Shown here: positions 1,200-19,951 of the stretch, in pieces
Layout: each line of letters begins with the position of its first letter
Position numbering within the stretch: position 1 is the stretch's first letter
Virus record (IMG/VR): IMGVR_UViG_3300048599_000797
Length of the DNA stretch: 20,000 nt
Origin: an uncultured virus (IMG/VR IMGVR_UViG_3300048599_000797)
Lineage: Duplodnaviria; Heunggongvirae; Uroviricota; Caudoviricetes
Strand: one strand, 5' to 3'
Notes under the pieces: model-generated
The model's database searches: none
Told to the model about the DNA's origin: nothing
The model's input: only the letters and a program-made list of their open reading frames with translations
Made by a program: the position numbers and the translations under genes

Positions 1200-2219
1200 T
1201 CAGTGGTTGCGCACCGTGATGACCTGGATGTGCAGAGTGGCGCCCGACGGTGCTGCGAGCGTCTGCACTTGGTTGCCTTGGGGATCGGTAATCGTCAGCG
1301 GTTTGCCGTCCGCGCCGTAGAAATGCAGCACCGCCGGCGGCGCCGGAGCCGGCGGCTGCGTGGTCGGTTGTGTCGGCGGGGTGGGCTGAGCCGGTTGACT
1401 CGGCTGAGGTTGCGGCGGCTGTTGCGATGGCAGCGGTAGCGGCGGCTGCAGCGGCGCGACCGGCTGCGTGGGCGTGGTGATCGTGGTCGTGATCACCGGG
1501 ACCAGCGGGCGATCGAGCGGCCGTAGCAGGCCCGCCAGCCACCTGCGGATCCAGCCGCACCACGTGCCGTAGTGGTGCCCGTCGCGCGAGCCCCACACGA
1601 TCGCCACCACCTGCCCCTGCTGGTTGAGCACCGCGGCGCCGGAGTCGCCGTTGCGCCCCTCGCCCGTGATCTGCACCCAGTCGTACGGGCCTTTGACGGC
1701 GATTTGCACGTAGCCCACCACGCGCCCGGAAAGCGGGCGGTAGATGCGGTTGGCAAACCCGGTCATCACCGTCACCGTGCCCGGCTGCGGCGGATCGGCG
1801 GCCAGCGGCCGCACGGGAAGTCGTGGGTCGGCGATCGACAACGCCAGCAGATCGCGCTGCGGTTCGGCCCCCAGCACGCGCGCCGCGAAGGCCGCGCCGG
1901 TGTAGGTATACACCACCACGCTATCGCCGCCGTCGCGCATGCCATGCCAGCAGGTGAGCACCACGGCCGTGGTGCCGTTGGCCTCGACGATCACGCCGCT
2001 GGTCCAGAAAATCCCGCTTTTCGCATACACCGCCACGCTCACCGTCGATGGGTCGGGCGCCTCTTGCACGGCATTGGCGCCCTGCGTGATCGAGCATCTG
2101 CCGTCGGCACACGGGGTGCCGGGAGCGCACGGTCCGCCGCCGCCGACAAACGTCGTCGGCTGCTGGCCGAGGGTCGCAGTACTCACGAGCGCTGCTACGA
2201 TCGCCGCCGCGAATCGCAT
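1200..2219 (-). CDS. Secreted trypsin-like (S1) serine protease with Pro/Gln-rich linker and short beta-rich C-terminal domain
   Basis: Triad motifs VLTCWH, RDLLAL and GRNGDSGAAV. The start is moved to ATG 2219 (MRFAAAIVAALVSTATLG signal peptide), 2 nt after the upstream stop. Confidence 0.9.
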   Translation of the reverse strand: MRFAAAIVAALVSTATLGQQPTTFVGGGGPCAPGTPCADGRCSITQGANAVQEAPDPSTVSVAVYAKSGIFWTSGVIVEANGTTAVVLTCWHGMRDGGDSVVVYTYTGAAFAARVLGAEPQRDLLALSIADPRLPVRPLAADPPQPGTVTVMTGFANRIYRPLSGRVVGYVQIAVKGPYDWVQITGEGRNGDSGAAVLNQQGQVVAIVWGSRDGHHYGTWCGWIRRWLAGLLRPLDRPLVPVITTTITTPTQPVAPLQPPLPLPSQQPPQPQPSQPAQPTPPTQPTTQPPAPAPPAVLHFYGADGKPLTITDPQGNQVQTLAAPSGATLHIQVITVRNH

Positions 2220-2221
2220 GG

Positions 2222-2803
2222 CTATTCCCCGGGAACGAGGGTGTGGTCGAAGCGGAAAAACGGCGAGCGGGCCAGATCGGCCGGCTCGGTGATCTCGTCG
2301 GCCAGGTGCTGCACCGGATCCACGCCGCCGCCGAGGCGGTAGGCCATCGAGCACGCCTGGCTGCAGAACGGCGGGCGGTGCGAGGGATGCAGATCGTCCG
2401 TCTGCGGCTTGCGCACAAAACGCACCAGCGGCAGATGCAGCAGGCCGGCCTGGAGCACGCCTAAGTAGCCGTAAGGGCAACCGCACAGCCGTCGCATGTA
2501 GGCCGCGGCGCCGTCGCGGTTAAATTCCGGCCACCGGCCTTGGGGATTGGCCACGTAGTGATCGATCGCGCCGGGGAATTTGGCGACCTGGCTGGAAAGC
2601 ATCACCGCGCGGCCGCCGTGCCACTCGCGCACCTCGACCGCGAACAGGTCGTCGCCCCACCACACGGCCATCGCCGCGTGTGTGTACTCGCTACGGCCGG
2701 CCACGGCGATCAGGCGGATCGTGCCGCGAAACAGCAACAGGTCGCCGGTGGCGATCTGCCGCCGGACGGCGGCATACGCTCGTGGTTTAGGATCCTGAAG
2801 CAC
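2222..2803 (-). CDS. Permuted papain-like NlpC/P60 hydrolase (YiiX/YaeF, peptidase C92-like)
   Basis: GDLLLFRG, YTHAAM (His), PYGY, FCSQAC (Cys) and PADLARS, in the His-before-Cys permuted order. Confidence 0.85.
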   Translation of the reverse strand: MLQDPKPRAYAAVRRQIATGDLLLFRGTIRLIAVAGRSEYTHAAMAVWWGDDLFAVEVREWHGGRAVMLSSQVAKFPGAIDHYVANPQGRWPEFNRDGAAAYMRRLCGCPYGYLGVLQAGLLHLPLVRFVRKPQTDDLHPSHRPPFCSQACSMAYRLGGGVDPVQHLADEITEPADLARSPFFRFDHTLVPGE

Positions 2804-2876: not shown

Positions 2877-3404
2877 TCAGATTTTTTCGAGCACGAGCAG
2901 GATCCCCGGCTCGAGGCCCTTGATGATCCGGGGCGGAAAGATCTTCAGCTCGCGATCGTTGGCGAATACGCCACCGTCGGCCAAGCCGTCGATCGCCGGC
3001 TTGAGGGCGGCGATCAAATTATCGGGGTCGGGATGCCGCCGCGTGGGGTACACGGCCACGATTTGCAGCGTGGCCCGTTTCCACGCACCCCGCATCCCGG
3101 CCCGCATCCTCGCCACGGCCGCCTCGTCCGCCGTGCGCCGACGGAGGGACTTCGCAATGCGACCTTTTTCCGCCCAGTGCACTCCTCGCGCCCGATTCGG
3201 CAGCAGCACCGGGTTGATCGGCGGAACCCGTACCGCCAGGCGGAGCACCACGAGCTCCTCGGGCAATGGCGGCAGCCGCTGGGGCTTGTCCGGCTTCCGT
3301 CGCTTGCGTTTGGCCGGCCGGGCCGCCGGCGCGTCGACGAAGCCCTGGAACGATCCTGGGAGCTTCGCCGACACGCCGGTGATTAGTCCCTTGGGAAGTC
3401 CCAC
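2877..3404 (-). CDS. rusA: RusA-like Holliday junction resolvase
   Basis: RRHPDPDNLIAALKPAIDGLADGGVFAND matches the RusA DxDN..K...D.L......DD motif, with ND for DD. Confidence 0.8.
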   Translation of the reverse strand: MGLPKGLITGVSAKLPGSFQGFVDAPAARPAKRKRRKPDKPQRLPPLPEELVVLRLAVRVPPINPVLLPNRARGVHWAEKGRIAKSLRRRTADEAAVARMRAGMRGAWKRATLQIVAVYPTRRHPDPDNLIAALKPAIDGLADGGVFANDRELKIFPPRIIKGLEPGILLVLEKI

Positions 3405-3599
3405 TCAGTCCTCCTTGGCCCACCGCAGGGCCTCCCGGGCAATCTGCCGCGACACGGGATGGCCGCCGGATTTGTTTTTTGCGGCGATGGCCAGGTTGCG
3501 CCGGAATAACTTCGACTGGGGGTCGCATTTGCTGCGTGACCTTGTGGAGATCCACGCGCGGACGCGGGCCCATTCGACGGCCGACAAGGATTCGATCAT
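3405..3599 (-). CDS. Small basic hypothetical protein (64 aa)
   Basis: ATG 3599 overlaps the ASCH stop (ATGA). Its stop abuts the rusA start. Confidence 0.7.
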   Translation of the reverse strand: MIESLSAVEWARVRAWISTRSRSKCDPQSKLFRRNLAIAAKNKSGGHPVSRQIAREALRWAKED

Positions 3600-4051
3600 G
3601 ACTCGTTGACTCCAGCCCAGAACAGTTGCTCCTCGACGACTTTCAGGGGCACGTCGAACAGCCCCTGGGCGCCACGATAGGGGATCGGCCGCTGAAATCG
3701 TCGCGCATCGTTGAGCACCCAGGCGCAGGGGCCCTCGGTGTGCTGATGCGTTTCCAGCCACGGGTATCTTTGCGCGTCCTCGGCCCGCCGCGGATCGCCC
3801 AGCGAGTTGACCTCGACGCAATCCACGAGCGCCACGACCCCCACGATCGCCCCATAAATCAGGGCCTCGAAATGGTGCGGAAAACTGTTCAGCCACCTCT
3901 TCGAGAGTCCGGCGTGGATCAGCAGCAGTCCCCGGTACCGCGTGGACCAGGTGCGGTTCTCGACTCGCTTCTGGAAGATGAACCGCGGCAGCTCGGCCTG
4001 CGGGGTGACGATGAGGTGGGCGTAGGGTTGGCAAATCGTGAGACACTTCAT
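3596..4051 (-). CDS. ASCH domain protein
   Basis: MKCLTICQPYAHLI...KRVENRTWSTRYRGLLLIHAG...GAIVGVVALVDC...PIPYRGAQGLF. Confidence 0.92.
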   Translation of the reverse strand: MKCLTICQPYAHLIVTPQAELPRFIFQKRVENRTWSTRYRGLLLIHAGLSKRWLNSFPHHFEALIYGAIVGVVALVDCVEVNSLGDPRRAEDAQRYPWLETHQHTEGPCAWVLNDARRFQRPIPYRGAQGLFDVPLKVVEEQLFWAGVNES

Positions 4052-4740: not shown

Positions 4741-5217
4741 CTAAGCGATTTGGGCCGGCCGCTCCTGGTCACGGACCCAAATCGCGGCCATCACGGTCAG
4801 CTCCAGCGAATTCTTCAGGCCCAGGCGGCGCTGGATCTCCGCCAGGTGCGTTTCCACGGTCTTCACGCCGAGACGCAGCTCGGCGGCGATCTCGTGCGTG
4901 GTATACGCGCAGCCCCGGAGCCGGAACACCTCGCGCTGCCGCTTGCTGAGCTTGCAGAGCGGCGCGTCCGCCTCCTGTTTCCACAACCGGCACGCGGGAT
5001 CCGCGGCACGAATATCGGTTGCAGGCCCGTGAGTCCAGTGATCCCTGAGCAGTCCACACTTGCGCCACCGCTTACCGTGGTAGTTCACCCGGCAGTAGTG
5101 GGCGCACGTGCGACAGGTTTCGCCGGCCGGGCCGGTACCGGGCAGCGCCGGGTGGGCCTTGTCGATCTTCCGCTTCGAGGGTTCGTCGGCGATCTCCTCG
5201 CCAAACAGGCTTGTCAT
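4741..5217 (-). CDS. Cys-rich (putative Zn-binding) domain fused to a LuxR/GerE-type HTH
   Basis: ATG 5217 overlaps the upstream stop. N-terminal CRTCAHYC...KC...PAC. C-terminal LSKRQREVFRLRGCAYTTHEIAAELRLGVKTVETHLAEIQRRLGLKNSLEL. Confidence 0.88.
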   Translation of the reverse strand: MTSLFGEEIADEPSKRKIDKAHPALPGTGPAGETCRTCAHYCRVNYHGKRWRKCGLLRDHWTHGPATDIRAADPACRLWKQEADAPLCKLSKRQREVFRLRGCAYTTHEIAAELRLGVKTVETHLAEIQRRLGLKNSLELTVMAAIWVRDQERPAQIA

Positions 5218-5555
5218 AGTGCTTTCGGCTCCTCCACGAGTCGGTACAGCAGGCTGCCTGGGTACATCCGCAGGCACTCGCCGCAGATAACACACGCCCG
5301 CCACTTGCGGGCGATGAACACTTGCGCCGCGTGCGGCGGGTTCGCCGTCCGGCCGCAGCGGCGACACCTGGGTACCGCGCCATCTTTCGCCGCGCGGGCC
5401 GCCGAGGCCACCTCCGGCCAGCGGCTGAGGGTCGATTGGGATACGCCCAGTTGCGCGGCGATCGAGCGGAGCGTCATGCCGGCCGCAGCCAGTTCCTTGG
5501 CCTTGGCCCGCACGGACGGGTCGATCGACTTCGCGGGTTTAAGTGCGTTCGCCAT
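5214..5555 (-). CDS. HTH protein with C-terminal CxxC...CxxC Zn ribbon
   Basis: AGMTLRSIAAQLGVSQSTLSRW (HTH), plus CRRC and CVIC. ATG 5555 follows AAGGAAAACGAC. Confidence 0.85.
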   Translation of the reverse strand: MANALKPAKSIDPSVRAKAKELAAAGMTLRSIAAQLGVSQSTLSRWPEVASAARAAKDGAVPRCRRCGRTANPPHAAQVFIARKWRACVICGECLRMYPGSLLYRLVEEPKAL

Positions 5556-6297
5556 TGGGTCGTTTTCCTTCACGAATGGTCTTCGTCAGCCGTTCGATGA
5601 TGGCGAGCAGATCCTCGATCCACACGCGGTTGAAATCCTCTTGTCCCCGGTCGTAGTGGAGTCGAATCGTTTCGACGTTCCGCCTCTCCTCCGCGGTGAG
5701 CGGGTCGGAGGCCTCTTGGCAGGCCGCCGCCAGCTCCCAGAACGTCGCCTCTGGAGCACATGCATAGCAGATTGCGTCTCGGTCACACTGGAGTGGGCCG
5801 CCACACGATCCGCAGCGCGCATCCAAGTGGAATTCCCCGCCGGCCCCCGGGGTGTCGTGAGACGCGGCGGGGGCTGATAACTCCCCGCAGCCCCGGGGGC
5901 CGTGCCCTGACAATGACTCGGCCATCGCGATGACGTCGGATAAAATCCGCGCCCATTCAGCCCACCAGGCATTTCGTTTTTCCTGCGGCCAGTGAGCGGG
6001 CAGCATGATCTCGGGTCCAGACCCTCCATCCTTGTCTCGAATCATGGCCGCCAGCCTCTCCGCTGCGGCCCTGCAGAGGGCGGAGGCATCCTGGCATGCG
6101 TGCTTGTCTCGCAATGTGGACTCGTAGTGCACACGCCAATTTCTGGCGCCTGCCTTCGCCGCCTCCAGCTCGGCGACGAGGCGGTCACGCTGGAAGGCCA
6201 GGCGGCTGATCACGTTCGTCTGGCCGGCTGCGTTTTCAGCACCGACCATTTCGGCAATCTCTTGTTCGGTCGGCGGTATCTTCACGTCAGGTTTCAT
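5539..6297 (-). CDS. Mosaic hypothetical phage protein (coiled coil plus Zn ribbon)
   Basis: The start at 6297 overlaps the upstream gene end. Helical N-terminal half, low-complexity linker, CGSC...CYAC. Confidence 0.7.
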   Translation of the reverse strand: MKPDVKIPPTEQEIAEMVGAENAAGQTNVISRLAFQRDRLVAELEAAKAGARNWRVHYESTLRDKHACQDASALCRAAAERLAAMIRDKDGGSGPEIMLPAHWPQEKRNAWWAEWARILSDVIAMAESLSGHGPRGCGELSAPAASHDTPGAGGEFHLDARCGSCGGPLQCDRDAICYACAPEATFWELAAACQEASDPLTAEERRNVETIRLHYDRGQEDFNRVWIEDLLAIIERLTKTIREGKRPNGERT

Positions 6298-8684: not shown

Positions 8685-9578
8685 TCACCTCTCTGCGTAG
8701 CTGGGTCCGTTGATGATCAACACCTCGGGGGCCTCCTTCAGTTGGCTCCCTCGCCCGTTTTGCACATGCAGGTTCTTCTGCCGTGTCTTCTCGACAAAGG
8801 TCCACCCTTGGTAGAGATCACGCACTCGCGGGCTGTCGTAGTAGCTGATTACGATCCGCGCCCGCTTGTACCCAGAGACGATATCCCGCAGGCGAACGTG
8901 ATCGTCTCCAAACAGCTGATCATCGTGGCTAAACTCATGCAGGTACTTGTGATCAGGCCCCTTGCCCTTGCGGTAACCGCTGCGCGTGTCCGCCAGGTAT
9001 GGAGGGTCGAGATAGATGGCGGTTTTCGGCGAATCCTCAAAGCGGTCGAGGATGGCGAACGCGTCTCGCTGGAGAATTACCACGTTTTGCAGCCGTACGT
9101 GCCAAGCAGGAAGCGACTCGACGGCGTTTCTCCAGCGGACCGTGGGAGACCCGCCGTTATTTGTCCATCGAACAGCCAGTTGATAGTCCACTCGCTTTGT
9201 CCCAGCGGTACCGTTGCGTCCCATCCATGAGGCGAGGAAACACCAGTACGCGCGGTTCAGTGGATCCACTTCGGATTGCAGCGCCTGGCGGGCATCATTG
9301 AGTATCCCCTCGCAGACCAAGGCACGCTGAAGACGTCCGTACAACTCCGGTGCTTGGTCGCTCTGGATCACCCTCGCCAAGTTGACCAAGTCGCCGTGCA
9401 GATCGTTGACCGTTTCCTTCTGGCTCGGATCCTTTGCGAAGAGCACGGCCATCGAGCCGCAGAAAGGCTCGAAGTACTGCGAGTGCTTCCCAAGCTCGGC
9501 GACGATATCGGGCGCCATGGTCCGCTTTCCGCCGAACCACGGGACGATTGCTTTAACCTTCATTTCGCTTGTACTCAT
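8685..9578 (-). CDS. N6-adenine DNA methyltransferase, D12/Dam class
   Basis: PWFGGK, YFEPFCGS, ETVNDL and YLDPPY. The start is probably ATG 9578 after GGAGAACG; the ORF extends to 9602. Confidence 0.93.
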   Translation of the reverse strand: MSTSEMKVKAIVPWFGGKRTMAPDIVAELGKHSQYFEPFCGSMAVLFAKDPSQKETVNDLHGDLVNLARVIQSDQAPELYGRLQRALVCEGILNDARQALQSEVDPLNRAYWCFLASWMGRNGTAGTKRVDYQLAVRWTNNGGSPTVRWRNAVESLPAWHVRLQNVVILQRDAFAILDRFEDSPKTAIYLDPPYLADTRSGYRKGKGPDHKYLHEFSHDDQLFGDDHVRLRDIVSGYKRARIVISYYDSPRVRDLYQGWTFVEKTRQKNLHVQNGRGSQLKEAPEVLIINGPSYAER

Positions 9579-9611
9579 GTCGTTCTCCAGACTTGTGCTC
9601 ACAGACCATTC

Positions 9612-11453
9612 CTACGCCGCCTCCGTAATCGCCGCGCAGATCGCCCGCCCGAACACTGGCGGGACCGCATTCCCGATCAACTTCGTTTGCTCGGCGAGGG
9701 TTTTCGCACCATCCAGGCGATAGTCCGCAGGAAAACTCTGCGCGAGCAGTAGCTCCCGGTTGGTGAGCATGCGGAACCCAACGTCGTACACGCCTAACTC
9801 GGCCATGGTTTTGATCAGGCTCCGCATCTCTGGACTGTCGTCACCGAGCTCCGCAGCCCGGGCCGCAAGGTAGTTCCCGAGCTCGCCCGCGCACACGTGA
9901 GCCGTGGCCATGCCGAACCGGTCCTTGGTGGTGACAGTGTCCAGAGGATCGGAGGGATCCGTCGCACCTCCGGCGCCGTAGTACTTGGTCAGGAAGGGCA
10001 GGCACAAGCCTTTTCCGCGCACCGTCGTTACGGCCCCAAGTGGCCGATCAAGCGGTGCGCAGCGGTCGCCGGTCTTTCCGTCTTCTCCGTGGTTCACGTC
10101 GACCATGTACGGCGTCACGAGATGCCCAGGTGAATGGCTCGCGGTGACCGTGGGTACCGGATCGTCAATCGACCTGGCCGGCTTGTCCTGGCGGCAATCA
10201 TAAAACCCCTGGCGCGGCAGCAGAAACGGAGTCACAAGGCTGTTGCCGGGCTTGGTGACGATCGTCGGAACCGGTCTATCGATCGTGGTCGACGTGTCGT
10301 CCCTTCGTCGGTTGTGAATGTCGATCAGATAGGGTTGCACGATCGCGTGGTTCTCCCGAGCGGCCAGGATCGTGGGCACGGGCGCCTCGATCGGCCTGGT
10401 CAACCCTGGGTTTCTTCCCCTGGCCTTGAATTGGAAGGGCGCAACCAGGGCGTACCGCGGATTGGTATCGATCGTGGGGAACGGCTGAGAGACGTCACAT
10501 TGCCGCTCGGTGCCATCCCGCTCCGGGTCCGTGCCGCCGTGGTACTGGACCATGAACGGGGTGGCCATGGCCGTGTGCTGGCTCTTGGCGGTCACCGTAG
10601 GAACTGGCTGCCGAATGTCGGCTACGGTGCTCATGCCGTAGAGCTGGACCAGGTAAGACCTGGCTTGGCCGGCGAAACGCCTCAGCCCGACCTCGATTCT
10701 CCGTAGGGTCTTCGGTTTCAGCGGCCGCTTTCGGTCGAAAATCGAAGGCGATGGAAGCGACCAGTCGATGATCGACGCCGCCGGCGCCCACTGGTCTCGG
10801 TTGTGCGTCGGATCGGGCCAGGGGATGTCCTTGCACCGCACATCCTCCCGCTTGGCAATGATAAACAGCCGCTGACGCGTGGTCGCCGCGCCAAAATCGG
10901 CGGCGTTGAGAATCTGGTGATCCAGGCGGTAACCGATGCTTTCCAACGCCCGCACCCACTGGCGGAAGATCTCCCCTTTCCGTTGCGGGTCGGGGATCAT
11001 CCATGGCCGGCCCTTCCGGTCCAGCATCGGCCGCCCGTGCTTATCCCGCTTCTGAATCAGGGGCCCCCAGTCGCGGAACTCGCGGACGTTTTCCACGACC
11101 ACCCACTGCGGCCGCTTGCACTCGGTCCAGATCACCACGTGCCACGGTGTGGCACGTTTCTGGTCCTCGACGGGCTGACCGCCGCGGGCGATCGAGTGAT
11201 GCGTGCATTCGGGCGATGCCAGCAGGAGGTCGAGCTCGGGGAGCGTGTGATCGTTCCTCGGGTCCACGTCGTCGATCCGAGCACAAATCACCCGGGCCCC
11301 GGGATGGTTGGCCTGGAACGAGTACGCCGCCGGGCGCCAGTGGTTGACCGCCAACACCGTGCGCACGCGCCCGGATTCCTCGGCACCTTGGGAGAACCCG
11401 CCGAGACCGCAAAACAGGTCCGCCGCTGCAAAGATCTTTCGGCGTCGTGCCAT
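9612..11453 (-). CDS. C5-cytosine DNA methyltransferase with repeat-expanded variable region
   Basis: DLFCGLGG (I), SPEC (IV), VENV (VI), RQRLF (VIII), RMLTNREL..AQSFP (IX) and IGNAVPP (X). Confidence 0.95.
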   Translation of the reverse strand: MARRRKIFAAADLFCGLGGFSQGAEESGRVRTVLAVNHWRPAAYSFQANHPGARVICARIDDVDPRNDHTLPELDLLLASPECTHHSIARGGQPVEDQKRATPWHVVIWTECKRPQWVVVENVREFRDWGPLIQKRDKHGRPMLDRKGRPWMIPDPQRKGEIFRQWVRALESIGYRLDHQILNAADFGAATTRQRLFIIAKREDVRCKDIPWPDPTHNRDQWAPAASIIDWSLPSPSIFDRKRPLKPKTLRRIEVGLRRFAGQARSYLVQLYGMSTVADIRQPVPTVTAKSQHTAMATPFMVQYHGGTDPERDGTERQCDVSQPFPTIDTNPRYALVAPFQFKARGRNPGLTRPIEAPVPTILAARENHAIVQPYLIDIHNRRRDDTSTTIDRPVPTIVTKPGNSLVTPFLLPRQGFYDCRQDKPARSIDDPVPTVTASHSPGHLVTPYMVDVNHGEDGKTGDRCAPLDRPLGAVTTVRGKGLCLPFLTKYYGAGGATDPSDPLDTVTTKDRFGMATAHVCAGELGNYLAARAAELGDDSPEMRSLIKTMAELGVYDVGFRMLTNRELLLAQSFPADYRLDGAKTLAEQTKLIGNAVPPVFGRAICAAITEAA

Positions 11454-11456
11454 GCC

Positions 11457-11744
11457 CTAGTTCCTCCTCTGCTGCACGTTGCGGAAGATGGTTGCGGTTT
11501 CCGCTATCTTCATTGCCAGATTGGGCGAGTGGTCGCGGTCGGCAGGAAGTCCCCAGAGCGTGCAAAGCATCGCCGCCGTCAACCCCATGGCCGCGTCGGC
11601 GGCCGCGGCCAACACCCACCCCGGAATCTGGTCTGGAGAGCTCTGGTACCTCTCCATGACCTCGGCGCGGGCGATGTTGAATGCCGCAAGACATTCATCC
11701 CGAACATGTTTGAACTGCTCCGCTTCGATCTGCGTGTGTGGCAT
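11457..11744 (-). CDS. Hypothetical helical protein (95 aa)
   Basis: ATG 11744 follows GGAGAACGCA. The stop is 3 nt before the MTase start. Confidence 0.75.
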   Translation of the reverse strand: MPHTQIEAEQFKHVRDECLAAFNIARAEVMERYQSSPDQIPGWVLAAAADAAMGLTAAMLCTLWGLPADRDHSPNLAMKIAETATIFRNVQQRRN

Positions 11745-11821
11745 TGCGTTCTCCATTCTCGGGCCGGCCGGCGTTCCCTGCCGACCGTCCCGTGTCCATC
11801 CGCGGCCGCTGTCGTGCGACC

Positions 11822-12316
11822 TTACCGGGAAATCATCCGAGCCAAACGCTCGCTGTCGTCGAACACGGCGATCAGTCGCCCCACGGCGCGAGCCATGGCC
11901 ATGACGTCGCCGAGGCCGATTGCGTAGTTCGGCCCGAGGTGCTCGGTGAGCGCCTCGAGCTGCGGCGTGAGGTCCGCGTAACTCGGCGGAACATCCGACT
12001 CGGGCAGCATCTGCTGGCGCTCCAGGTCGTAGCCGACCATTCGGGCGAACACGCTGGTCAGCAGATCCAGGCCCTGCACCTGCATCAGCACGTTAAGCCG
12101 CAGCACGAGGAGGTCGTCGACGTGTTGCGGGCCGAGGCGTGGCGCCGAGGTCAGCAGCTCGGCGGCGCAGCGGATCCGCTCACGCAGGCCGGTCACGGTC
12201 CATGTGGGCGTGCCGATCTCGCGGTACTCTTGGAGCGTGTCCAGCAGCTCGAGAAACACGCTGGGATAGGCGTATTTCAGGCGCTGCACCAGGTCGACAA
12301 AATCGTCGAGCTTCAT
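11822..12316 (-). CDS. Hypothetical helical protein (164 aa)
   Basis: ATGA overlap with the upstream gene; GGAGG RBS. Confidence 0.8.
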   Translation of the reverse strand: MKLDDFVDLVQRLKYAYPSVFLELLDTLQEYREIGTPTWTVTGLRERIRCAAELLTSAPRLGPQHVDDLLVLRLNVLMQVQGLDLLTSVFARMVGYDLERQQMLPESDVPPSYADLTPQLEALTEHLGPNYAIGLGDVMAMARAVGRLIAVFDDSERLARMISR

Positions 12317-13635
12317 TCCTCCACCTCCGCCGGCTCCTCGTCCATGTCGGCGAAGTAGTCGTCGTCCAGGGGATCATCGACGAACTCGGCGTCCTCCGTT
12401 TCGTCGAGCTCCTGGTCGGCGGCGTCCTCGAGCTCCTCGTCGGTCGGCTCGGCATCGTCGTCGTCCTGATCCTGGGCCGCGGCGAAGGGCGACTCGATCC
12501 CGTGCTCCCTGCAGAACACCTCGAGCACCGCGGCCGTTTTTTGGGCCGTCGGCCCGCCCACCGCATCGAGCGACTCGAAACGGTTGCCGGCCTGCACCCA
12601 GGCGTAGACCTCACCCATCGTCGTGAGCTGGGCCTTCTCCAGGGCCGTGCGGGCCCGCTTGCAGAAGCCGCTGTCGTCGAGCGCGATCTGCTCCCAGTTG
12701 GCCGGCGCCGCCGGCTGGCGGGAGCCTTTCACGATCTCGGCGAACTCGAGCAGAATCTGCGCCTGGTCGCCGTTGATCCCCGGAATGTCGAGGAAGGTGA
12801 ACCCGGCCGAGTGCCAATCCACCGCCTGCTCGGGCGTCGTGATGCCCTGCGACTCGAGGTAGCTGAACGTGGCCGGCTGAAGTCCCGAGGGCCACTGCAG
12901 GCCGGGCTCCGGCTCGGCGGCCGACTCTGGGGCCGGCGCGCCGCCGCGGGCGGACTCCAGGGCGGCCTTATCACGGTTCGCGCTGAGCCAGTTGAGCACC
13001 GCCTCCTCGATCCGATCGGCGTTGCCCTGGCCGATCCCGTTGAGGCTCGTCAGGCCGGCGCCTGCCCGCAGATCCTCGAGCTCGCCGATCGTGCTCACGC
13101 CGCCCTCGTGGAGCAGATCCACCTGGCGTTCGTTGAGCGTGAGCTCCTCGATCGTCACCAGACGCCACGAGTTGTCCACCGGTTCGCTGGCCGCCGTGGG
13201 AGCTGCCGGTGCCTCCTCGCCGAACGGCAGTTGCCGCTGCGGGTCGGGCTTGGGCGGCAAGGCCGGGCCGCGGCGGATCAGGTCGCGGAGGTATTCGTCG
13301 GCGCGTTCGAATCGCTTCTTCGCGTTCTTGTGCTCCTCGGCGGCCTCCTCCATCTCCGCTTCGCGCTCCGCCACCTCGCGCTCCTGCTCCTTGATGGCCT
13401 CGTAGTGATCGCGCTCGGCCTTGTCCCAGGCAGCGGCCTCGTCCTGCTCGGCGACGTTGTCCTCCTCGGCGGCTGGTTCGGCTTCGGCGGCGACTTCAGG
13501 CACCTCGGCCGCAGTGGCTTCTGCGGACGCTTCCGGGGATTCGACGTGCTCCTCGGCCGGCGCGTCAACGACCTGCGTCTCCACCTGGTTCTGCTCTTCG
13601 GATTCGACTTCCACGGGGGTTTCGACTTCACTCAT
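12313..13635 (-). CDS. Acidic protein with coiled coil and three RNA polymerase alpha-CTD-like (helix-hairpin-helix) domains
   Basis: AAGGAG RBS. TIEELTLNERQVDLLHEGGVSTIGEL...LTSLNGIG..NADRIEE resembles alpha-CTD, and two further copies follow. Confidence 0.75.
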   Translation of the reverse strand: MSEVETPVEVESEEQNQVETQVVDAPAEEHVESPEASAEATAAEVPEVAAEAEPAAEEDNVAEQDEAAAWDKAERDHYEAIKEQEREVAEREAEMEEAAEEHKNAKKRFERADEYLRDLIRRGPALPPKPDPQRQLPFGEEAPAAPTAASEPVDNSWRLVTIEELTLNERQVDLLHEGGVSTIGELEDLRAGAGLTSLNGIGQGNADRIEEAVLNWLSANRDKAALESARGGAPAPESAAEPEPGLQWPSGLQPATFSYLESQGITTPEQAVDWHSAGFTFLDIPGINGDQAQILLEFAEIVKGSRQPAAPANWEQIALDDSGFCKRARTALEKAQLTTMGEVYAWVQAGNRFESLDAVGGPTAQKTAAVLEVFCREHGIESPFAAAQDQDDDDAEPTDEELEDAADQELDETEDAEFVDDPLDDDYFADMDEEPAEVEE

Positions 13636-13680
13636 CGATACAGCTCCTTGGGGTTGCGCTCGGCTTCCTCGCCGAGCAGG

Positions 13681-13872
13681 TTACAGTTCATCCACGGGAC
13701 CGAGTAAACGGCGCTTCTCGGACCACGCTCGGCGGTAGATAGCATCCAGGTCCGAGTTCTGGGGGAACCCGAGACGAACCATCACGATCACAAAATCGAT
13801 GTCGCGCTGCGCACGCTCGAGGCGTGCGGCGGGCTGTACTGGCCATCGACTGGGTGAGGAAATGCGGTTCAT
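13681..13872 (-). CDS. Small hypothetical protein (63 aa)
   Basis: TGATG overlap at 13872; MNRISSPSRW... Confidence 0.6.
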   Translation of the reverse strand: MNRISSPSRWPVQPAARLERAQRDIDFVIVMVRLGFPQNSDLDAIYRRAWSEKRRLLGPVDEL

Positions 13873-14129
13873 CAGTTGGTCCCTTTTGCTTTGCGGAGAC
13901 GCGAGGCCTCCCAGATCGCGAACATCAGCAGATCGCCCAGCCCGCTTGCGGTGATCTGGTATCCCGCGGCTTGTGACTTCGCGTCTTCGACGGCCTTGGT
14001 CGCGGTGAGGTAGGCACTCTCGGCGACCGCGAGCCACTCGTGCTCGGGCATCTCGATCAGCCGCTGCTTGATGCGTGTTACCGCCTCAAGGCCGCTGCGC
14101 AGCAGTTCCTGAACTTCAGCTTCGGTCAT
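13872..14129 (-). CDS. Hypothetical helical protein (85 aa)
   Basis: GGAGGA RBS; overlaps the end of the initiator gene. Confidence 0.75.
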   Translation of the reverse strand: MTEAEVQELLRSGLEAVTRIKQRLIEMPEHEWLAVAESAYLTATKAVEDAKSQAAGYQITASGLGDLLMFAIWEASRLRKAKGTN

Positions 14130-15024
14130 GGAGATCCTCCGTCTCTGGCAGCGCGATCCGGGTCGCCGCCAACAGTTGGTGCAGATTGACGCCGGCTTTC
14201 GAGGCCTCGGCCTTGATCACCGTCATGAGGTAGCCGACCGGCCGGGTTACGGGCTCTTCGCTGGTGTTGCGGCGCAGACTCAGGGCCTGCAGGCCGGAGT
14301 CGATCCAAGCCTCGGGGATCTGCCCGGTGACCATCAGGCTCCCGAGCTTCAGGAGGGTGAGCCGATCCTGCGCCCGAAAATGCTTGTTGATCAACCCGCC
14401 CCCCAGCGGTCGGAACTTGCGGAGTGCGGCCGCCACGGCCTCCTCGCTCGCGCACGCGTCTTTCTTGGATAACGTATGTAAATGGTCCTCACCTCTCCTC
14501 TCCTCACCGTCTGGTTGTGGTTGTGGTTGTGGTTGTGGAGAGGGCAAAACCTCCGCATTTGCTCCGCCTGATACTCCGCACGGCTGCGGAGTATTTGCGG
14601 AGTTTTTCTCCGCACCACTGCGGAGGTTTTGCGGAGTATTTTTCCGCGTCTTCACCGCACGAGCGTCGGCTTTCTTCCGCTTGGCGTCGGCAATTCGCCG
14701 CTTCGACGAGTTGGTGAACCACTTCTCGTAGTGCGGCATGACCGTGTCGCTGCCGTCGAAGTGCAGCCACCCCATAGGGTTTTCCGCGCTCTTCGTCACC
14801 CGCGCGATGGTCTCCCAGTACTCGGCCGTGCCTCCCAGCCGAGACGCCAGCCCCTTGGCCTGCACATTGCGATAGCGGCCGTCGGTGGTGTGCCGGTCCA
14901 TCAATCGCCAGAACAAGAACCAGCGGAAGAACACGGTTTCCACGGACTCACCAGTCGCCTCGACGATGGCGATGAATTCAGGCTTGTCGGGGAGGTCGTG
15001 ATCAAGAGGCAGCCAGTCGGCCAT
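14116..15024 (-). CDS. Phage replication initiator / replisome organizer-like protein
   Basis: MADWLPLDHDLPDKPE...FWRLMD.HTTDG N-terminal domain, basic helix (SKRRIADAKRK), repeat-encoded linker and PQPQ/EERRGE linker. Located just after RecT. Confidence 0.75.
   Translation of the reverse strand: MADWLPLDHDLPDKPEFIAIVEATGESVETVFFRWFLFWRLMDRHTTDGRYRNVQAKGLASRLGGTAEYWETIARVTKSAENPMGWLHFDGSDTVMPHYEKWFTNSSKRRIADAKRKKADARAVKTRKNTPQNLRSGAEKNSANTPQPCGVSGGANAEVLPSPQPQPQPQPDGEERRGEDHLHTLSKKDACASEEAVAAALRKFRPLGGGLINKHFRAQDRLTLLKLGSLMVTGQIPEAWIDSGLQALSLRRNTSEEPVTRPVGYLMTVIKAEASKAGVNLHQLLAATRIALPETEDLHDRS
14512..14538. repeat. (TGGTTG)x4.5 tandem repeat encoding PQPQPQPQP
   Basis: Directly visible in the sequence. 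Confidence 0.9.
14544..14648. repeat. Iteron-like TGCGGAG/CTCCGCA cluster; putative replication origin
   Basis: CTCCGCA at 14551, 14574 and 14608; TGCGGAG at 14585, 14596, 14619 and 14630; degenerate copies at 14562 and 14642. Confidence 0.75.
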
Positions 15025-15086: not shown

Positions 15087-16481
15087 TCAGGTGAAGAGCT
15101 TGCCGCCGCCGTTGGTCGGCTTGGGAGCCATGGCCGGGCGATCGGTGGGCGAGGCCGGCAGTTCCGCCAGTCGCTGTTCGACCAGGTGCAGCATGTCGTC
15201 GAGCTCCTGCTGGTCCGTGAGCAGCTTCTGGATCGCCTCCCATGCGGCTTTCCCGTCGCCCTTGTGCTTCATGCCACGCATGATCGAGTGCGCCTTCATC
15301 CAGGCCTCGGAGCGTTGCGGCTGGGCCGGCTGAGCCTTGGCCGGAGGTGTGGACGTGGGCGCCGTCTGGGCGGGCTTCTGCGTGGCCGATGGAGCCGCAG
15401 GAGCGGGCTTGGTGGCGGGGGCCGGCTTCTGCGCCGCGGGGGCCGTCGCGGCCTGCTGCGTGGGCTTGGTGGCCTTGCGGGGCGCGGCTTTGGCGGCCTT
15501 CTCGGCGGCCGTCGGCGGGAGCTCGACATGCTCGGCCGGCACGGTGACCGTTTCGGTTTTGGGCGGCTCCGGGGGCTGGCTCTGGACCGCGGGCTCGATC
15601 ACCTCGACCGGCCCGGCCGGAGCCTGGGGCTGCTCTTCCTTGGGCTGCGGCAGCCGCTTGACCTCCGCGTCGTAATTGTCGGGCATCGTGCTCAGTACGC
15701 CCGAGGCATCAAGGGTCGCGGGGAGCACCACGTCGATCCGCGATTGGCTCTCCTGGCTGAGCCCCATTTCGCGCTCGCGCATCAAGTCCAGGTCGTCATT
15801 GGAGAGAATGCCGAGCATCAGCTCGGGCGTGTAGCGGCGAGCCCACTTGGTGCAGCCCGTGTACCACAGTTTCTGCTCGGGATCCTTCCACCACATGTCG
15901 TTCTTGGTCTTGGCCTGAGCGACGGTCAGACGCACGGCCTCGACGCCCATCCGCAACAGCTTGCGGGCCGCCACGCGGTCCTCCTGGTCGGTGTACGCCT
16001 CGAGCAGCTCGTAGGCATCGTCGCTGACGTCGCCCTCGCGCTTGGCGAACACCACCGCCGCCAGATCGTCGCCTTTGCCGGGCCCGTACATGATCGACAG
16101 CGGCTTGCTCAGTCCGGCCCGCGTGTTGACAATCGCGGCGATGAGCTTGCCCTGGTACCCCAGCTTGTTGCCCACCACGTAGGTTTCGGCGGCCACCGCG
16201 AAAATATCCGCGCCCCACCGCACGGCCTGGTTGGCGACGAGAATGCAGTTGGCCACCGTCTGCTGCCAGGCAATATGGCCGCGTTTCTCCTCGGGCACGT
16301 TGGTCAGGTCCGACTTGCGGACCTTGAGGTGCACGGGCGTGAGCGGGGCGGCGGCGAGCTTTTCCGCCTGCTCACAGACGAACTTCCACATGCTCTCCGC
16401 GTCGTTGCGCACGGCAGGTGCCTTGGCCGGCGGTACGGCCACGGGCGGCGTTTCGGTGTGGGTTTGAAGCGAAGTCGACAT
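15087..16481 (-). CDS. recT: RecT-family single-strand annealing protein with long Ala/Pro/Lys-rich tail
   Basis: ANCILVANQAVRWGADIFAVA.ETYVVGNKLGYQGKLIAAIVN and WWKDPEQKLWY...WARRYTPELMLGI. Close to the exonuclease. ATG 16481 follows GGAGAACGCT. Confidence 0.82.
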   Translation of the reverse strand: MSTSLQTHTETPPVAVPPAKAPAVRNDAESMWKFVCEQAEKLAAAPLTPVHLKVRKSDLTNVPEEKRGHIAWQQTVANCILVANQAVRWGADIFAVAAETYVVGNKLGYQGKLIAAIVNTRAGLSKPLSIMYGPGKGDDLAAVVFAKREGDVSDDAYELLEAYTDQEDRVAARKLLRMGVEAVRLTVAQAKTKNDMWWKDPEQKLWYTGCTKWARRYTPELMLGILSNDDLDLMREREMGLSQESQSRIDVVLPATLDASGVLSTMPDNYDAEVKRLPQPKEEQPQAPAGPVEVIEPAVQSQPPEPPKTETVTVPAEHVELPPTAAEKAAKAAPRKATKPTQQAATAPAAQKPAPATKPAPAAPSATQKPAQTAPTSTPPAKAQPAQPQRSEAWMKAHSIMRGMKHKGDGKAAWEAIQKLLTDQQELDDMLHLVEQRLAELPASPTDRPAMAPKPTNGGGKLFT

Positions 16482-16517
16482 AGCGTTCTCCAAAGTTTGG
16501 GTGTTGTAGATGGTGGG

Positions 16518-17042
16518 TTATTCACCGGTGAAGGGGCTCGACGAGTTGCGAATCTCCCCGAGCATGACTTTCGGGTCGATCAAGTGGTACGTGCCGCCGA
16601 TCTGGAGCTGTACCGGCATCCGCTCGCGCGCGGCGAGAACGATCGCCTCCGCGAGCGCGCTCGCGGTATCGAATCCCAACTGCGGGATGGCGATGATCAT
16701 CGACGTCCCGTCGGGCAGTCTGTGCAGTTTGTGCCGCAGGTACCCGCGGGACGTGGTCGAGCACTGGGGCGCGTTGTCGCCGGCCGCGTCGGGATGCTTC
16801 GGCTGCTCGGGATTCTCCTCGGGCTCTGGCGGCGAGAGGAACAACTTCTGGCCGATGCCGCGATTGGGCTTACCGTCGCTGAACGTCGGGCGGAACATGC
16901 GGGCGAGCGCGCCCAGCATCTCGTCGAAGCAGAGCTCGGCGTGATCGAGCTTGCCGAAGCGATCAGCGATCACGTGGAAGTTGCTGCGCTGATACTCGGC
17001 GATGATCGTCACGCGTTGGGGTTGGCTGTTACTGATCGGCAT
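16518..17042 (-). CDS. Hypothetical protein (174 aa) between exonuclease and RecT
   Basis: ATG 17042 overlaps the exonuclease end, with GGAG upstream. Confidence 0.65.
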   Translation of the reverse strand: MPISNSQPQRVTIIAEYQRSNFHVIADRFGKLDHAELCFDEMLGALARMFRPTFSDGKPNRGIGQKLFLSPPEPEENPEQPKHPDAAGDNAPQCSTTSRGYLRHKLHRLPDGTSMIIAIPQLGFDTASALAEAIVLAARERMPVQLQIGGTYHLIDPKVMLGEIRNSSSPFTGE

Positions 17043-17958
17043 TGTTGGCAAACTCCATAAAATCGGTGAAAGGTTCGACGCTCCCGGGATTTTCATCCCA
17101 CTTCCATTTCAAAACCTGGGTCAACGTGCAGCGGCCGAAGCCATGGCCGCGCCAGTCGCCCGATGCCAGCCTCGCCCGCACCTCGGCCAACGAGATGTGG
17201 GTGTGGCGCATCCCCAGTTCGACGTCATGCTCGGCCAACTCCTTGAGCCGCGCACGGAACGGGGGCACGTTTTCCACGAACAGGAACACCCACCGGTTGG
17301 GCCTGGAATAGGCTCGTTCGGTGTGCTCCCAGTACATCCCGGCCTGGCTGTAGTAGCCCATGCCGGTGACCTGTTTCTCGATCCAGCGGTCGTCGCAGCC
17401 GCCCGAGAATTTCAGGTCCAGAATGTCCAGCGCGTTGCGGAACTGGCAGAGCTTGTCCAGCCGCACGCGGGTCGGCAGGCCCGTCGCCTGGTCGACCATA
17501 AACAGCGAGTGCTCGACGTACCCCTGGGTCTCGAGGTACGCCTTGATCTGCGGGTCGGCCAGGCAGTGTTCGCGGGCGTAGCTGAGTGCGCTGAACTCAT
17601 CGCGCTTGATCACCGGCACGTTGGGCAGGGCCTGGCCGATCTTTTCCCAGCCGCCGGGCGCCACCGATCCGGCTTTGGTCAGGAAATCCTGCGGCACGAG
17701 TGTGGGCTTGATCTGCTCCAGCAGCCAGGCGTGCAGCGCCGAGCCCATGACCATCGCCCGCGTCTGCGAGAATTCGACGCGCCGGAGGATGTACTTCCAC
17801 TCGAACATCTCCGGTTCGTCCGGCAGATACTTGAGCTGGCTGTGGGACCAGTTGCCCATACGGTGGTACCGGTCGTTGGGCATGTCGACGTGCACGCACT
17901 TGCCGTCGGGCGGCGCGATGATCTCTTTTTGTGGGTTAGGAGGCAGAACCACGATCAC
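17029..17958 (-). CDS. RecE/exonuclease VIII-like PD-(D/E)xK nuclease (DUF3799-like)
   Basis: DMPNDRYH, SHSQLK, GSALHAWLLE, VEHSLF, RVRLD, ILDLK and YYSQAGMY. Confidence 0.9.
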   Translation of the reverse strand: MIVVLPPNPQKEIIAPPDGKCVHVDMPNDRYHRMGNWSHSQLKYLPDEPEMFEWKYILRRVEFSQTRAMVMGSALHAWLLEQIKPTLVPQDFLTKAGSVAPGGWEKIGQALPNVPVIKRDEFSALSYAREHCLADPQIKAYLETQGYVEHSLFMVDQATGLPTRVRLDKLCQFRNALDILDLKFSGGCDDRWIEKQVTGMGYYSQAGMYWEHTERAYSRPNRWVFLFVENVPPFRARLKELAEHDVELGMRHTHISLAEVRARLASGDWRGHGFGRCTLTQVLKWKWDENPGSVEPFTDFMEFANNADQ

Positions 17959-19003: not shown

Positions 19004-19930
19004 TTAGAACAGCATCAACTGACGCTCGTGCGATGGAATTGGAAGCGCTGGCAGCACGTCGACGGCCCGCCGGTTTTCCGCGATCGTCGGGTCGATGTAG
19101 TGCCGGAGCGTAATCGCTGGTGAAGAATGGCCGGCCTGCGATTGGGCGAGTTCCAGACTGTCCACCGCAAGATACGACAGGTTCCAGCGTCGAATCGAAT
19201 AGAAGATGTCCTTGGTGACACGGCTGGGATGAATCCCCGCGGACTCCATGATCTTCCGTGCGGACGTCCAAAGGTGCCGCCGGCAGTGTGGCCATGGCCA
19301 CACCAATTCGCGGCTCGTATTGAAAATCTCGGCGACCGCTGAAACGGCCCAAGACGCCAACGGATAGACCTTGCCACGGCCGGTCTTGACAGTCCCGTGG
19401 CGTACGCGGATCCGGCCCGCCTGGAGGTCCACATCTTCGGTCCGCGTCCGCACCAACGCACCAGGTCGCTCGCCAGTGCTCGCCGTCACCAGGAACAGAC
19501 TCGCCCAGAAGTTGGATCGCGAAATTCCAGAAATCTGCCCCGCCAACCCAGCGCACCTGGAGATCAACGCCCGCAGCTCGTCGGTGGATCTCGCGCGCGG
19601 AGGATCGTAGCACTCCCGCATGCGGGGGACGTCCCGAGGAAGATCGCGGACGACATCCTTCCGCCAGGCACAACGCCACAACGCCAAAATCTTCGACCGC
19701 TTTCCATTCACGGTCGCCGGCGAATCCCCAGCAGCAACTCTCGACTGGAGGAACGCGACGACCACCTCGTCGCATAAGTCCGCCACCGGGGAACCGCAGA
19801 ACTCGTCGTATTGCCGCGCAACACGCTCGATTTCGGCGACCGCGCGCGGCGTGATTCCGAGTCGACTGGGGACGTAGACCGAACGGCAAAACGCCACTAG
19901 CGACATTGCGCCATACGTTGCGAAGTACAT
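19004..19930 (-). CDS. Tyrosine recombinase/integrase-family protein
   Basis: SPATVNGK core-binding region, TGER (Arg), VKTG (Lys), YSIRR (HxxR with H->Y), GHSS (His) and RHY (Tyr). Start at ATG 19930 or GTG 19936. Confidence 0.9.
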   Translation of the reverse strand: MYFATYGAMSLVAFCRSVYVPSRLGITPRAVAEIERVARQYDEFCGSPVADLCDEVVVAFLQSRVAAGDSPATVNGKRSKILALWRCAWRKDVVRDLPRDVPRMRECYDPPRARSTDELRALISRCAGLAGQISGISRSNFWASLFLVTASTGERPGALVRTRTEDVDLQAGRIRVRHGTVKTGRGKVYPLASWAVSAVAEIFNTSRELVWPWPHCRRHLWTSARKIMESAGIHPSRVTKDIFYSIRRWNLSYLAVDSLELAQSQAGHSSPAITLRHYIDPTIAENRRAVDVLPALPIPSHERQLMLF

Positions 19931-19951
19931 CGCCACCCCCCCTAAAAGCGG

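Follow-up and report, generated by a model that had tools for sequence, protein, structure and literature searches.

The DNA analyzed here was a stretch of 20,000 nucleotides (hereafter the window, at its full length) from an uncultured virus of the class Caudoviricetes, IMG/VR record IMGVR_UViG_3300048599_000797, and the gene under study is a minus-strand open reading frame (ORF) at 12313..13635 whose product is referred to below as the target protein, or P0001. All genes in the window are on the minus strand, and the target lies between the RecT, exonuclease and replication genes on one side and the DNA methylase genes on the other, a theme that was repeated in four other loci carrying a relative. 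The protein combines a long heptad helix, a linker bearing a hexapeptide of the type that binds the bacterial sliding clamp, and helix-hairpin-helix (HhH) domains resembling the RNA polymerase alpha subunit's C-terminal domain (alpha-CTD), between two strongly acidic tails (Table 1). The reading preferred below, which we hold to be about evenly balanced between right and wrong, takes the gene product to be an early prophage adaptor, docked on DnaN, the replicative sliding clamp of the host.

Table 1. Position of the target gene, of the parts of its product, and of other genes in the window (residue numbers are those of the target protein; pLDDT, predicted local distance difference test; D/E and K/R, acidic and basic residues).
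Feature	Position	Strand	Remarks
Target gene, whole	12313..13635	-	440 aa plus stop; stop overlaps start of ORF 11822-12316
Shine-Dalgarno sequence AAGGAG	13644..13649	-	8 nt 5' of the target ATG; read directly from the sequence
Disordered Glu-rich N-terminal tail, residues 1-70	13426..13635	-	23 D/E, 0 K/R, net charge -23; pLDDT 44-61
Long helix, probable coiled coil, residues 72-122	13270..13422	-	pLDDT 90-96 in AlphaFold2 model; a/d heptad pattern
Disordered linker from helix to HhH unit 1, residues 123-156	13168..13269	-	No secondary structure; pLDDT 63-73
QRQLPF, clamp-binding-type motif Q-x-x-L-P-F, residues 133-138	13222..13239	-	Conservation, linker enrichment, modeled DnaN interface
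HhH unit 1, residues 157-231	12943..13167	-	Alpha-CTD-like, five helices, G-I-G hairpin, trailing 'WL..NRD' helix; pLDDT 91-98
HhH unit 2, residues 248-305	12721..12894	-	Diverged, generic HhH/SAM-like; pLDDT 79-86 in full model
HhH unit 3, residues 311-380	12496..12705	-	Probable diverged unit-1 copy keeping the leading W, by unit-1 profile; pLDDT 52-83
Disordered Asp/Glu tail, residues 381-440	12316..12495	-	31 D/E, 0 K/R, net charge -31
Integrase	19004-19936	-	
PD-(D/E)XK exonuclease	17029-17958	-	
RecT-like protein	15087-16493	-	
Replication initiation protein (phrog_2509)	14116-15024	-	
Small ORF	13872-14129	-	85 aa
Small ORF	13681-13872	-	63 aa; fills apparent 236-nt gap upstream of target; ATG overlaps stop of 85-aa ORF; no family match
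ORF	11822-12316	-	164 aa
ORF	11457-11756	-	99 aa
C5 methylase	9612-11453	-	613 aa; Pfam match split in three stretches
N6 methylase	8685-9602	-	D12 class, 305 aa; in tandem with C5 methylase
Helix-turn-helix regulator	5214-5573	-	
LuxR/GerE-type regulator	4741-5367	-	Likeness to sigma-70 region 4
phrog_3193	3596-4051	-	
RusA	2877-3404	-	
Trypsin-like peptidase	1200-2486	-	

The target ORF had a GC content at third codon positions of 0.88, which is of the coding type, in a window of about 65% GC, and the net charge of its 440-residue product was -78. A model of the full protein was built with AlphaFold2 from an alignment of 112 relatives (alignment A1; counts out of 112 below refer to it). Its mean pLDDT was 71, and it consisted of a helix at residues 72-122, an unstructured linker, three domains at residues 156-231, 254-305 and 323-377, and disordered tails; all three units had the same helix-helix-hairpin-helix layout. 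An initial annotation, made from the letters of the sequence alone, had described this ORF as an acidic phage protein with a Glu-rich N-terminus, a coiled coil, the hexapeptide QRQLPF, three tandem alpha-CTD-like HhH domains and an Asp/Glu tail. The ORF, both tails and the hexapeptide were found just as described, the coiled coil agreed with the modeled helix and with a heptad pattern in the family, and the three units (residues 157-217, 248-302 and 314-376) aligned pairwise in register at 23-30% identity.

To collect relatives, 1.84 billion cluster representatives were scanned exhaustively with HMMER; counting the query itself, 633 sequences reached E<=1e-3, of which 128 reached E<=1e-10 and 3 reached E<=1e-30. 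The features of the protein exceed chance, in that the linker motif and HhH unit 1 are conserved across the 633 representatives of the widest set. All relatives were unnamed and came from metagenomes or viral contigs, and a cluster look-up of ten of them gave no protein name beyond 'hypothetical protein'. The conserved module covers approximately residues 70-230 and comprises the coiled coil, the linker motif, a Trp-Arg pair, one HhH domain and the trailing 'WL..NRD' helix, and most relatives are proteins of 170-350 residues with a single HhH domain. Among the relatives seen, P0003 (421 residues, 33% identity over residues 81-434) was the only one with units 2 and 3 and the acidic tail, and P0006 had two HhH units. 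The three domains of the target are thus a local elaboration rather than a family trait, and the multivalency proposed in the initial annotation did not hold for the family.

Additional domains were found in a few members, namely RMF-like domains (PF04957) in 6/112 and an ASCH domain in 1/112 by Pfam. By their 'DDW[LI]RGW' signature, RMF-like domains were seen at either end of the module in P0002, P0007, P0010, P0011, P0024, P0028, P0034, P0040 and L007:1-591. In P0033 (670 residues) the coiled-coil/HhH module was fused to MutS domain I (E 1.4e-22), which ties the family to DNA transactions; this protein had a weak RMF-like C-terminus and a linker lacking an LPF-type motif. A relative of 452 residues encoded at L006:180-1538 (plus strand) likewise had no LPF-type motif and carried its HhH module C-terminally, after a long unrelated N-terminal region, so that the HhH unit also travels apart from the clamp-type peptide. 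Within the acidic tail of the target, the segment DDDYFAD (residues 424-430; 12346-12366, minus strand) was common to P0003. A hydrophobic-x-x-hydrophobic tip on the acidic C-terminus (e.g., LDDL, LADL, IDI) was considered as a family motif and dropped, being present in only 10/112 members; the tipped tails of these ten recall single-strand-binding proteins, whose acidic C-terminal tails end in a hydrophobic tip.

Other collections added little. Using tblastn with P0001 and the compact relative P0023, no match was found in 50,697 phage records and 72,556 plasmids, and the species genome collection gave no confirmed relative of P0001, of a second alignment (A2) or of the RecT-like protein of the window. 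In word-indexed protein searches the acidic low-complexity tails dominated the results, and one to three relatives were returned, without useful names; with residues 240-390 as query, the only match was the protein itself. The nearest clusters in the ESM Atlas were unnamed and 73-91% viral, with a score (0.84) that serves as a lead only. Two matches of the target were set aside, one to a PHROGs tape-measure family (E 0.29), considered spurious, and one to LeoBC in PADLOC (13.8 bits), which was disregarded. Loci encoding relatives were located on one IMG/VR viral contig, by the A2 search (none by P0001 alone), and on six metagenome contigs, most of them short.

A coiled coil at residues 72-122 is likely. 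Across the 112 relatives, hydrophobic residues recurred at positions 78, 81, 84, 88, 91, 95, 98, 102, 105, 109, 112, 116 and 119/120, a 3-4-3-4 spacing, and the Fourier amplitude of helix hydrophobicity was strongest at a period of 3.5. In the VIA fold search the helix matched dimeric coiled coils with Z about 6.3. The persistence of the heptads at the family level suggests oligomerization, which we infer from the aligned sequences.

The linker that follows is otherwise variable, and its motif is the best-conserved linear feature of the family: P137 was kept in 102/112 members, L136 in 90/112 and Q133 in 73/112, and position 138 was F in 48/112 and L in 44/112. Alignment-free counts were made using a strict pattern (Q..[LM]P[FL], [LM]P[LM]F, [QE][LM].[LM]F or Q..[LM]F), which occurred in the linker of 77/112 members (94/112 with looser forms) at a density of 1.72 per 100 residues, vs 0.038 elsewhere in the same proteins, an approximately 45-fold enrichment. 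Published bacterial clamp-binding motifs include the tight-binding hexapeptide of Hda, QLSLPL, and the pentapeptide QL[S/D]LF, more generally QxxLF (PMC12309361), and the hydrophobic pair at motif positions 4/5 or 5/6 is described as the core that enters clamp subsite I (PMC7261172). The two linker forms of the family, Q-x-x-L-P-[FL] and [LM]-P-L-F, fit both published classes, and QRQLPF itself has the Q-x-x-L-P-F form of the hexapeptide type. The first form has positions 1, 4, 5 and 6 in common with the Hda peptide, and the second has the terminal L-F core of the polymerase pentapeptide. Unlike the Hda and polymerase motifs, that of the family is internal, at the end of the coiled coil, its proline is nearly invariant, and the glutamine is missing in about one third of members. 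The motif combines conservation with a disordered segment, as clamp-binding motifs do, and its place in a stretch modeled as disordered, where short docking motifs reside, suggests clamp binding. The motif that the initial annotation had called clamp-binding-like is thus, among linear elements, the best kept in the family, and it was also modeled in the canonical clamp pocket with clean controls.

The complex was modeled using two copies of E. coli DnaN, target residues 105-160 and alignment A1. A score of 0.71 was obtained (individual runs 0.72, 0.70 and 0.71), as compared with 0.03 for the best of three controls. Solved complexes attain the score mark used in 116 of 157 cases, and mismatched pairs in 2 of 215. 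At least 80% of contacts were common to the runs, and the pLDDT of the partner was 51. The modeled interface joins target residues 132-139 to residues 172, 174-177, 242, 246-247, 278, 280, 320, 344, 346, 360 and 362-365 of one DnaN protomer, so that the QRQLPF segment is predicted to fit the canonical hydrophobic cleft between DnaN domains II and III. In published work, P242, V247, M362 and P363 of DnaN were mutated as the region contacted by clamp-binding motifs (PMC7261172).

Unit 1 was characterized by fold and profile searches. In an exhaustive VIA search the top match was the alpha-CTD of B. subtilis (1z3e_B; Z 9.0, root mean square deviation 1.9 A, 64 of 67 residues) and the second was E. 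coli alpha (4mex_A, Z 8.4), followed by the HhH domain of AF1548 (8.1), the N-terminal domain of RAD51C (7.9), and the AR1 (1u9l_B, 6.6) and AR2 (2jzb_B, 6.2) domains of NusA. Among PDB sequences, the best match of the family profile was RNA polymerase alpha (E 1e-4), followed by the RAD51 N-terminal domain (1.2e-3). Foldseek gave no row at E<=0.001 against PDB or BFVD, either for the full model or for a model of residues 240-390; its sub-threshold PDB rows belonged to the same fold set, the best being NusA (8y5l_NA, 155 columns, E 8.5e-3), with TMt 0.83 for 7vpd_S. Going by these models, alpha-CTD-like is a fair label for unit 1, with a margin of about one Z unit over other HhH domains. Pfam matches at E<=0.01 were to DUF3701 in 26/112 members (best 3.4e-9), HHH_5 in 22/112 and RNA_pol_A_CTD in 22/112 (best 1.9e-5). 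P0001 was below all Pfam curated cut-offs, including those of RNA_pol_A_CTD (PF03118; 13.3 vs 23.8 bits) and DUF3701 (PF12482; 19.1 vs 26.9), the latter being cleared by P0003 with 28.8 bits. The NCBIfam scan gave only a sub-threshold alpha-subunit match. No RNA_pol_A_bac or RNA_pol_L match was found in P0001, in which an acidic tail and coiled coil precede the HhH domain in place of the alpha N-terminal domain, and no NusA domains were found in the target by Pfam or NCBIfam.

Units 2 and 3 are more diverged. A hidden Markov model built from unit 1 of the family alone gave, for P0001 and P0003 respectively, 16.2 and 20.8 bits at unit 3 and weak scores of 0.1 and 9.8 bits at unit 2; by this comparison, unit 3 is probably a diverged copy of unit 1. 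Residues 240-390 modeled alone gave a mean pLDDT of 62, weaker than in the full model, and the fold searches with this segment covered unit 2 only. They ranked alpha-CTD (Z 4.5) behind the Rad51 N-terminal domain (Z 6.5), BAF, AF1548 and SAM domains, and unit 2, as modeled, is a generic HhH/SAM-like domain. The alpha-CTD likeness claimed in the initial annotation was accordingly borne out for unit 1, by fold and by profile, as a label shared with AF1548, RAD51C and NusA AR1; it did not carry over to each unit, since unit 2 is nearer to Rad51, and the best Pfam family is DUF3701.

These matches bear on a reading built on the function proposed in the initial annotation, in which acidic domains resembling alpha-CTD or the NusA AR domains would bind activators, sigma region 4, NusA or alpha-CTD, acting as a decoy or an antitermination adaptor, and the linker motif would make some other contact. 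The ranking of alpha-CTD first by both fold and profile argues for such a role, as do the two NusA AR matches, the NusA row at the head of the Foldseek results, and the net acidic charge of the HhH domain in 98/112 members (mean -3.6); the acidic repeats of NusA have the same fold and bind proteins. In BFVD the annotation 'RNA polymerase alpha subunit C-terminal domain' is given to small phage proteins of 131-149 residues (uncultured Caudovirales, Mycobacterium phage Mithril), and although their matches to the target were weak (E 0.27-0.82), the annotations indicate that stand-alone alpha-CTD-like domains exist in other phages. However, alpha-CTD leads the HhH domains that have no part in transcription (AF1548 and RAD51C) by less than one Z unit, the Pfam threshold for RNA_pol_A_CTD is missed, the hairpin is the canonical G-I-G found in DNA-binding HhH motifs, multivalency is not conserved, and the gene context is one of recombination, replication and methylation rather than transcription control. 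On balance, mimicry of the transcription machinery is considered unlikely.

The same domain could belong to a recombination or replication accessory protein, in which the HhH domain would attach without sequence specificity to DNA ends or to branched intermediates, the coiled coil would dimerize, and the motif would contact RecT, the exonuclease, the initiator or some host protein that is not the clamp. Unit 1 is well conserved at W157 and G184 (109/112 each), and its canonical hairpin, with G200 in 104/112 and G202 in 111/112, favors this role, together with the basic positions R158 (98/112), K/R170 (65/112), K174 (73/112), R190 (97/112) and K199 (64/112). The DNA contacts made by the UP-element surface of alpha-CTD are known as the '265 determinant'. 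In a partial mapping of that determinant, the helix-1 Arg of T. thermophilus alpha was paired with K/R170 in the profile alignment, and the hairpin glycine was the one kept in 111/112. HhH domains of the Rad51 N-terminal domain, UvrC, DisA and Pol X were among the fold matches, and DUF3701, the best Pfam family, is described as the HhH domain found at the N-terminus of TnpR-type tyrosine recombinases, with DNA binding as its proposed role (PMC8138268). The fusion of P0033 to MutS domain I and the synteny with RecT and nucleases point in the same direction. Against this stand the acidity of the domain and of the whole protein, 109/112 members being net negative; the immediate neighbors, which differ between loci and offer no evident fixed phage partner; and the clamp-type forms of the motif and its modeled docking in the cleft, which would go unexplained. 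A DNA-binding accessory role is judged doubtful.

The gene neighborhood was examined in the window and in the related loci. The order of genes in L001 was RecT, exonuclease V-like, homolog, ERCC4 nuclease, methylase, phrog_3193 and primase, and in L004/L005 it was 3'-5' exonuclease, RecT, homolog, HNH and methylase; the homolog was followed by a methylase in L002 and by an HNH gene in L003. The position of the target downstream of exonuclease, RecT and initiator genes, and of relatives beside RecT and exonuclease in L001 and L004/L005, is counted in favor of clamp docking. Methylase genes were observed downstream of the family gene in L001, L002 and L004 also.

The methylases, and the tails of the target, bear on one more possibility, namely that the Asp/Glu tails mimic DNA and block restriction enzymes or RecBCD-type nucleases early in infection, beside the phage methylases. 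Both tails are extremely acidic, with -23 over 70 residues and -31 over 60 residues and no K/R, and in L001, L002, L004 and the window the gene lies upstream of DNA methyltransferases at a distance of zero to three genes. Its position after exonuclease and RecT resembles that in which lambdoid phages keep Gam- and Ral-type genes. However, conservation resides in the helix, the motif and the HhH domain and is poor in the tails, which are disordered; Pfam, PHROGs and PADLOC gave no match to anti-restriction families already known; and acidity alone is weak evidence. An anti-restriction or nuclease-inhibiting function is therefore thought improbable.

Other features of the window are as follows. 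No tRNA was found. No polymerase or clamp gene was seen among the window genes, though an initiator is present, and the element presumably relies on the host replisome. The RecT-like protein is unusually long (468 residues), with Pfam RecT covering residues 192-241 only and phrog_561 covering 44-376, and the divided Pfam match of the C5 methylase indicates a long insert in the enzyme. The LuxR/GerE and helix-turn-helix ORFs overlap by approximately 150 nt as called, so one of the starts is probably wrong. They are the only candidate late regulators in the window, in which the initial annotation had recognized no N- or Q-like antiterminator. A conserved partner gene was sought and none was retained, since BLASTP with the 85-, 63-, 164- and 99-residue neighbors gave no match among the genes of the related loci. 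The upstream gap was also considered as the site of an origin or promoter and rejected, as the 63-residue ORF occupies the gap and no promoter- or terminator-like site was found in 11400-14300.

Taken as a clamp-docking adaptor, the protein would operate as follows. The heptad helix would pair two or more chains, each of which would offer its Q-x-x-L-P-F peptide on a flexible acidic linker, and the peptide would enter the hydrophobic clamp cleft used by polymerases, Hda and MutS/MutL. The HhH domain, one in most relatives and three here, would add a second surface, for DNA or protein, at clamp-loaded DNA. The outcome could be that clamp clefts are blocked, leading to take-over of host replication or to the shielding of RecT intermediates and heteroduplexes from clamp-dependent mismatch repair, or that a phage function is tethered to replicating DNA. 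The MutS-domain fusion in P0033 hints at an outcome related to mismatch repair. Precedent exists in phage Mu, whose MuC and Mor are described as binding the clamp via clamp-binding motifs (PMC12867686).

Several points weigh against docking on the clamp. The clamp modeled was that of E. coli, a stand-in for the clamp of the phage's own host. Alignment A1 was custom-made and lies outside the calibration of the score, and it was taken from the best-scoring relatives (best 150 of 633), which here favors query-like members. The docking result may reflect a likeness learned by the model, because many clamp-peptide complexes have been solved. The clamp cleft is described as promiscuous (PMC7261172) and the definition of a clamp motif is loose; 13/112 members had no recognizable linker motif and 5 more had only LPG or LF. 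The near-invariant Pro137 is not a residue of the QL[S/D]LF consensus, and could thus serve another partner. The acidity of the HhH domain speaks against simple DNA binding, and its ligand may be either DNA or protein.

A combined scheme was also considered, in which the protein would act as a clamp-tethered surrogate alpha-CTD: a coiled-coil dimer on DnaN rings left on replicating phage DNA would present domains like alpha-CTD. These would either draw in RNA polymerase or its activators or take the place of the genuine alpha-CTD or of NusA AR2, so that phage expression would be coupled to phage replication. We regard this as very unlikely.

No paper on such a protein was found in the literature searched, and none on the combination of CTD-like, RNA polymerase alpha, bacteriophage and HhH, a broader search giving nothing relevant either; by titles and abstracts, the literature on phage proteins acting on DnaN dealt with Mu, small RNA and other unrelated cases, and that found on DUF3701 with tyrosine recombinases only. 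Neither clamp-binding motifs nor alpha-CTD-like HhH domains are new in themselves; on this evidence, the novelty lies in a large phage family that joins them to a coiled coil. The family comprises at least 633 sequence clusters, all unnamed, with coiled coil, clamp-type motif and alpha-CTD-like HhH domain in a fixed architecture, and its position within the early operons of phages is fixed as well. If the predicted docking is real, it would represent a common, unrecognized means of seizing or exploiting the replisome hub, used by temperate phages whose bacterial hosts are uncultured, and the family would supply natural bivalent clamp ligands; if the HhH domain also touches the transcription machinery, a new link between replication and transcription would follow.

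Among known systems, the closest parallel to the proposed function is provided by phage transcription factors that use a sliding clamp, namely MuC and Mor of Mu, with host DnaN, and gp33 and gp55 of T4, with the phage clamp gp45 (PMC12867686). In that account, phage proteins known to engage the host clamp are few, being those of Mu, with T4 using its own clamp. Like these factors, the target family is a phage protein with a clamp-type motif, proposed from its sequence to link a second activity to clamp-loaded DNA. None of the searches related the target to Mor or MuC by sequence or fold, and it differs from them in its coiled coil and HhH domains and in lacking a known promoter-binding role. 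Unit 1 has the compact five-helix double-hairpin fold of RNA polymerase alpha-CTD (PF03118), and differs in lacking the alpha N-terminal domain, in falling below the Pfam threshold, in its G-I-G hairpin and acidity, and in being preceded by a coiled coil and a docking motif. The tandem acidic HhH domains are of the same fold class as NusA AR1 and AR2, but the N-terminal, S1 and KH domains of NusA are absent, the fold scores are lower than for alpha-CTD, and most relatives have a single domain. DUF3701 (PF12482), to which PMC8138268 assigns no known function, is the best Pfam family for the HhH unit; the target has no recombinase domain, and P0001 is under the cut-off. By analogy with T4, which uses gp45 with gp33 and gp55, and Mu, which uses MuC with DnaN, a clamp-tethered surrogate alpha-CTD, if true, would represent a third, structurally unrelated answer, widespread in uncultured temperate phages.

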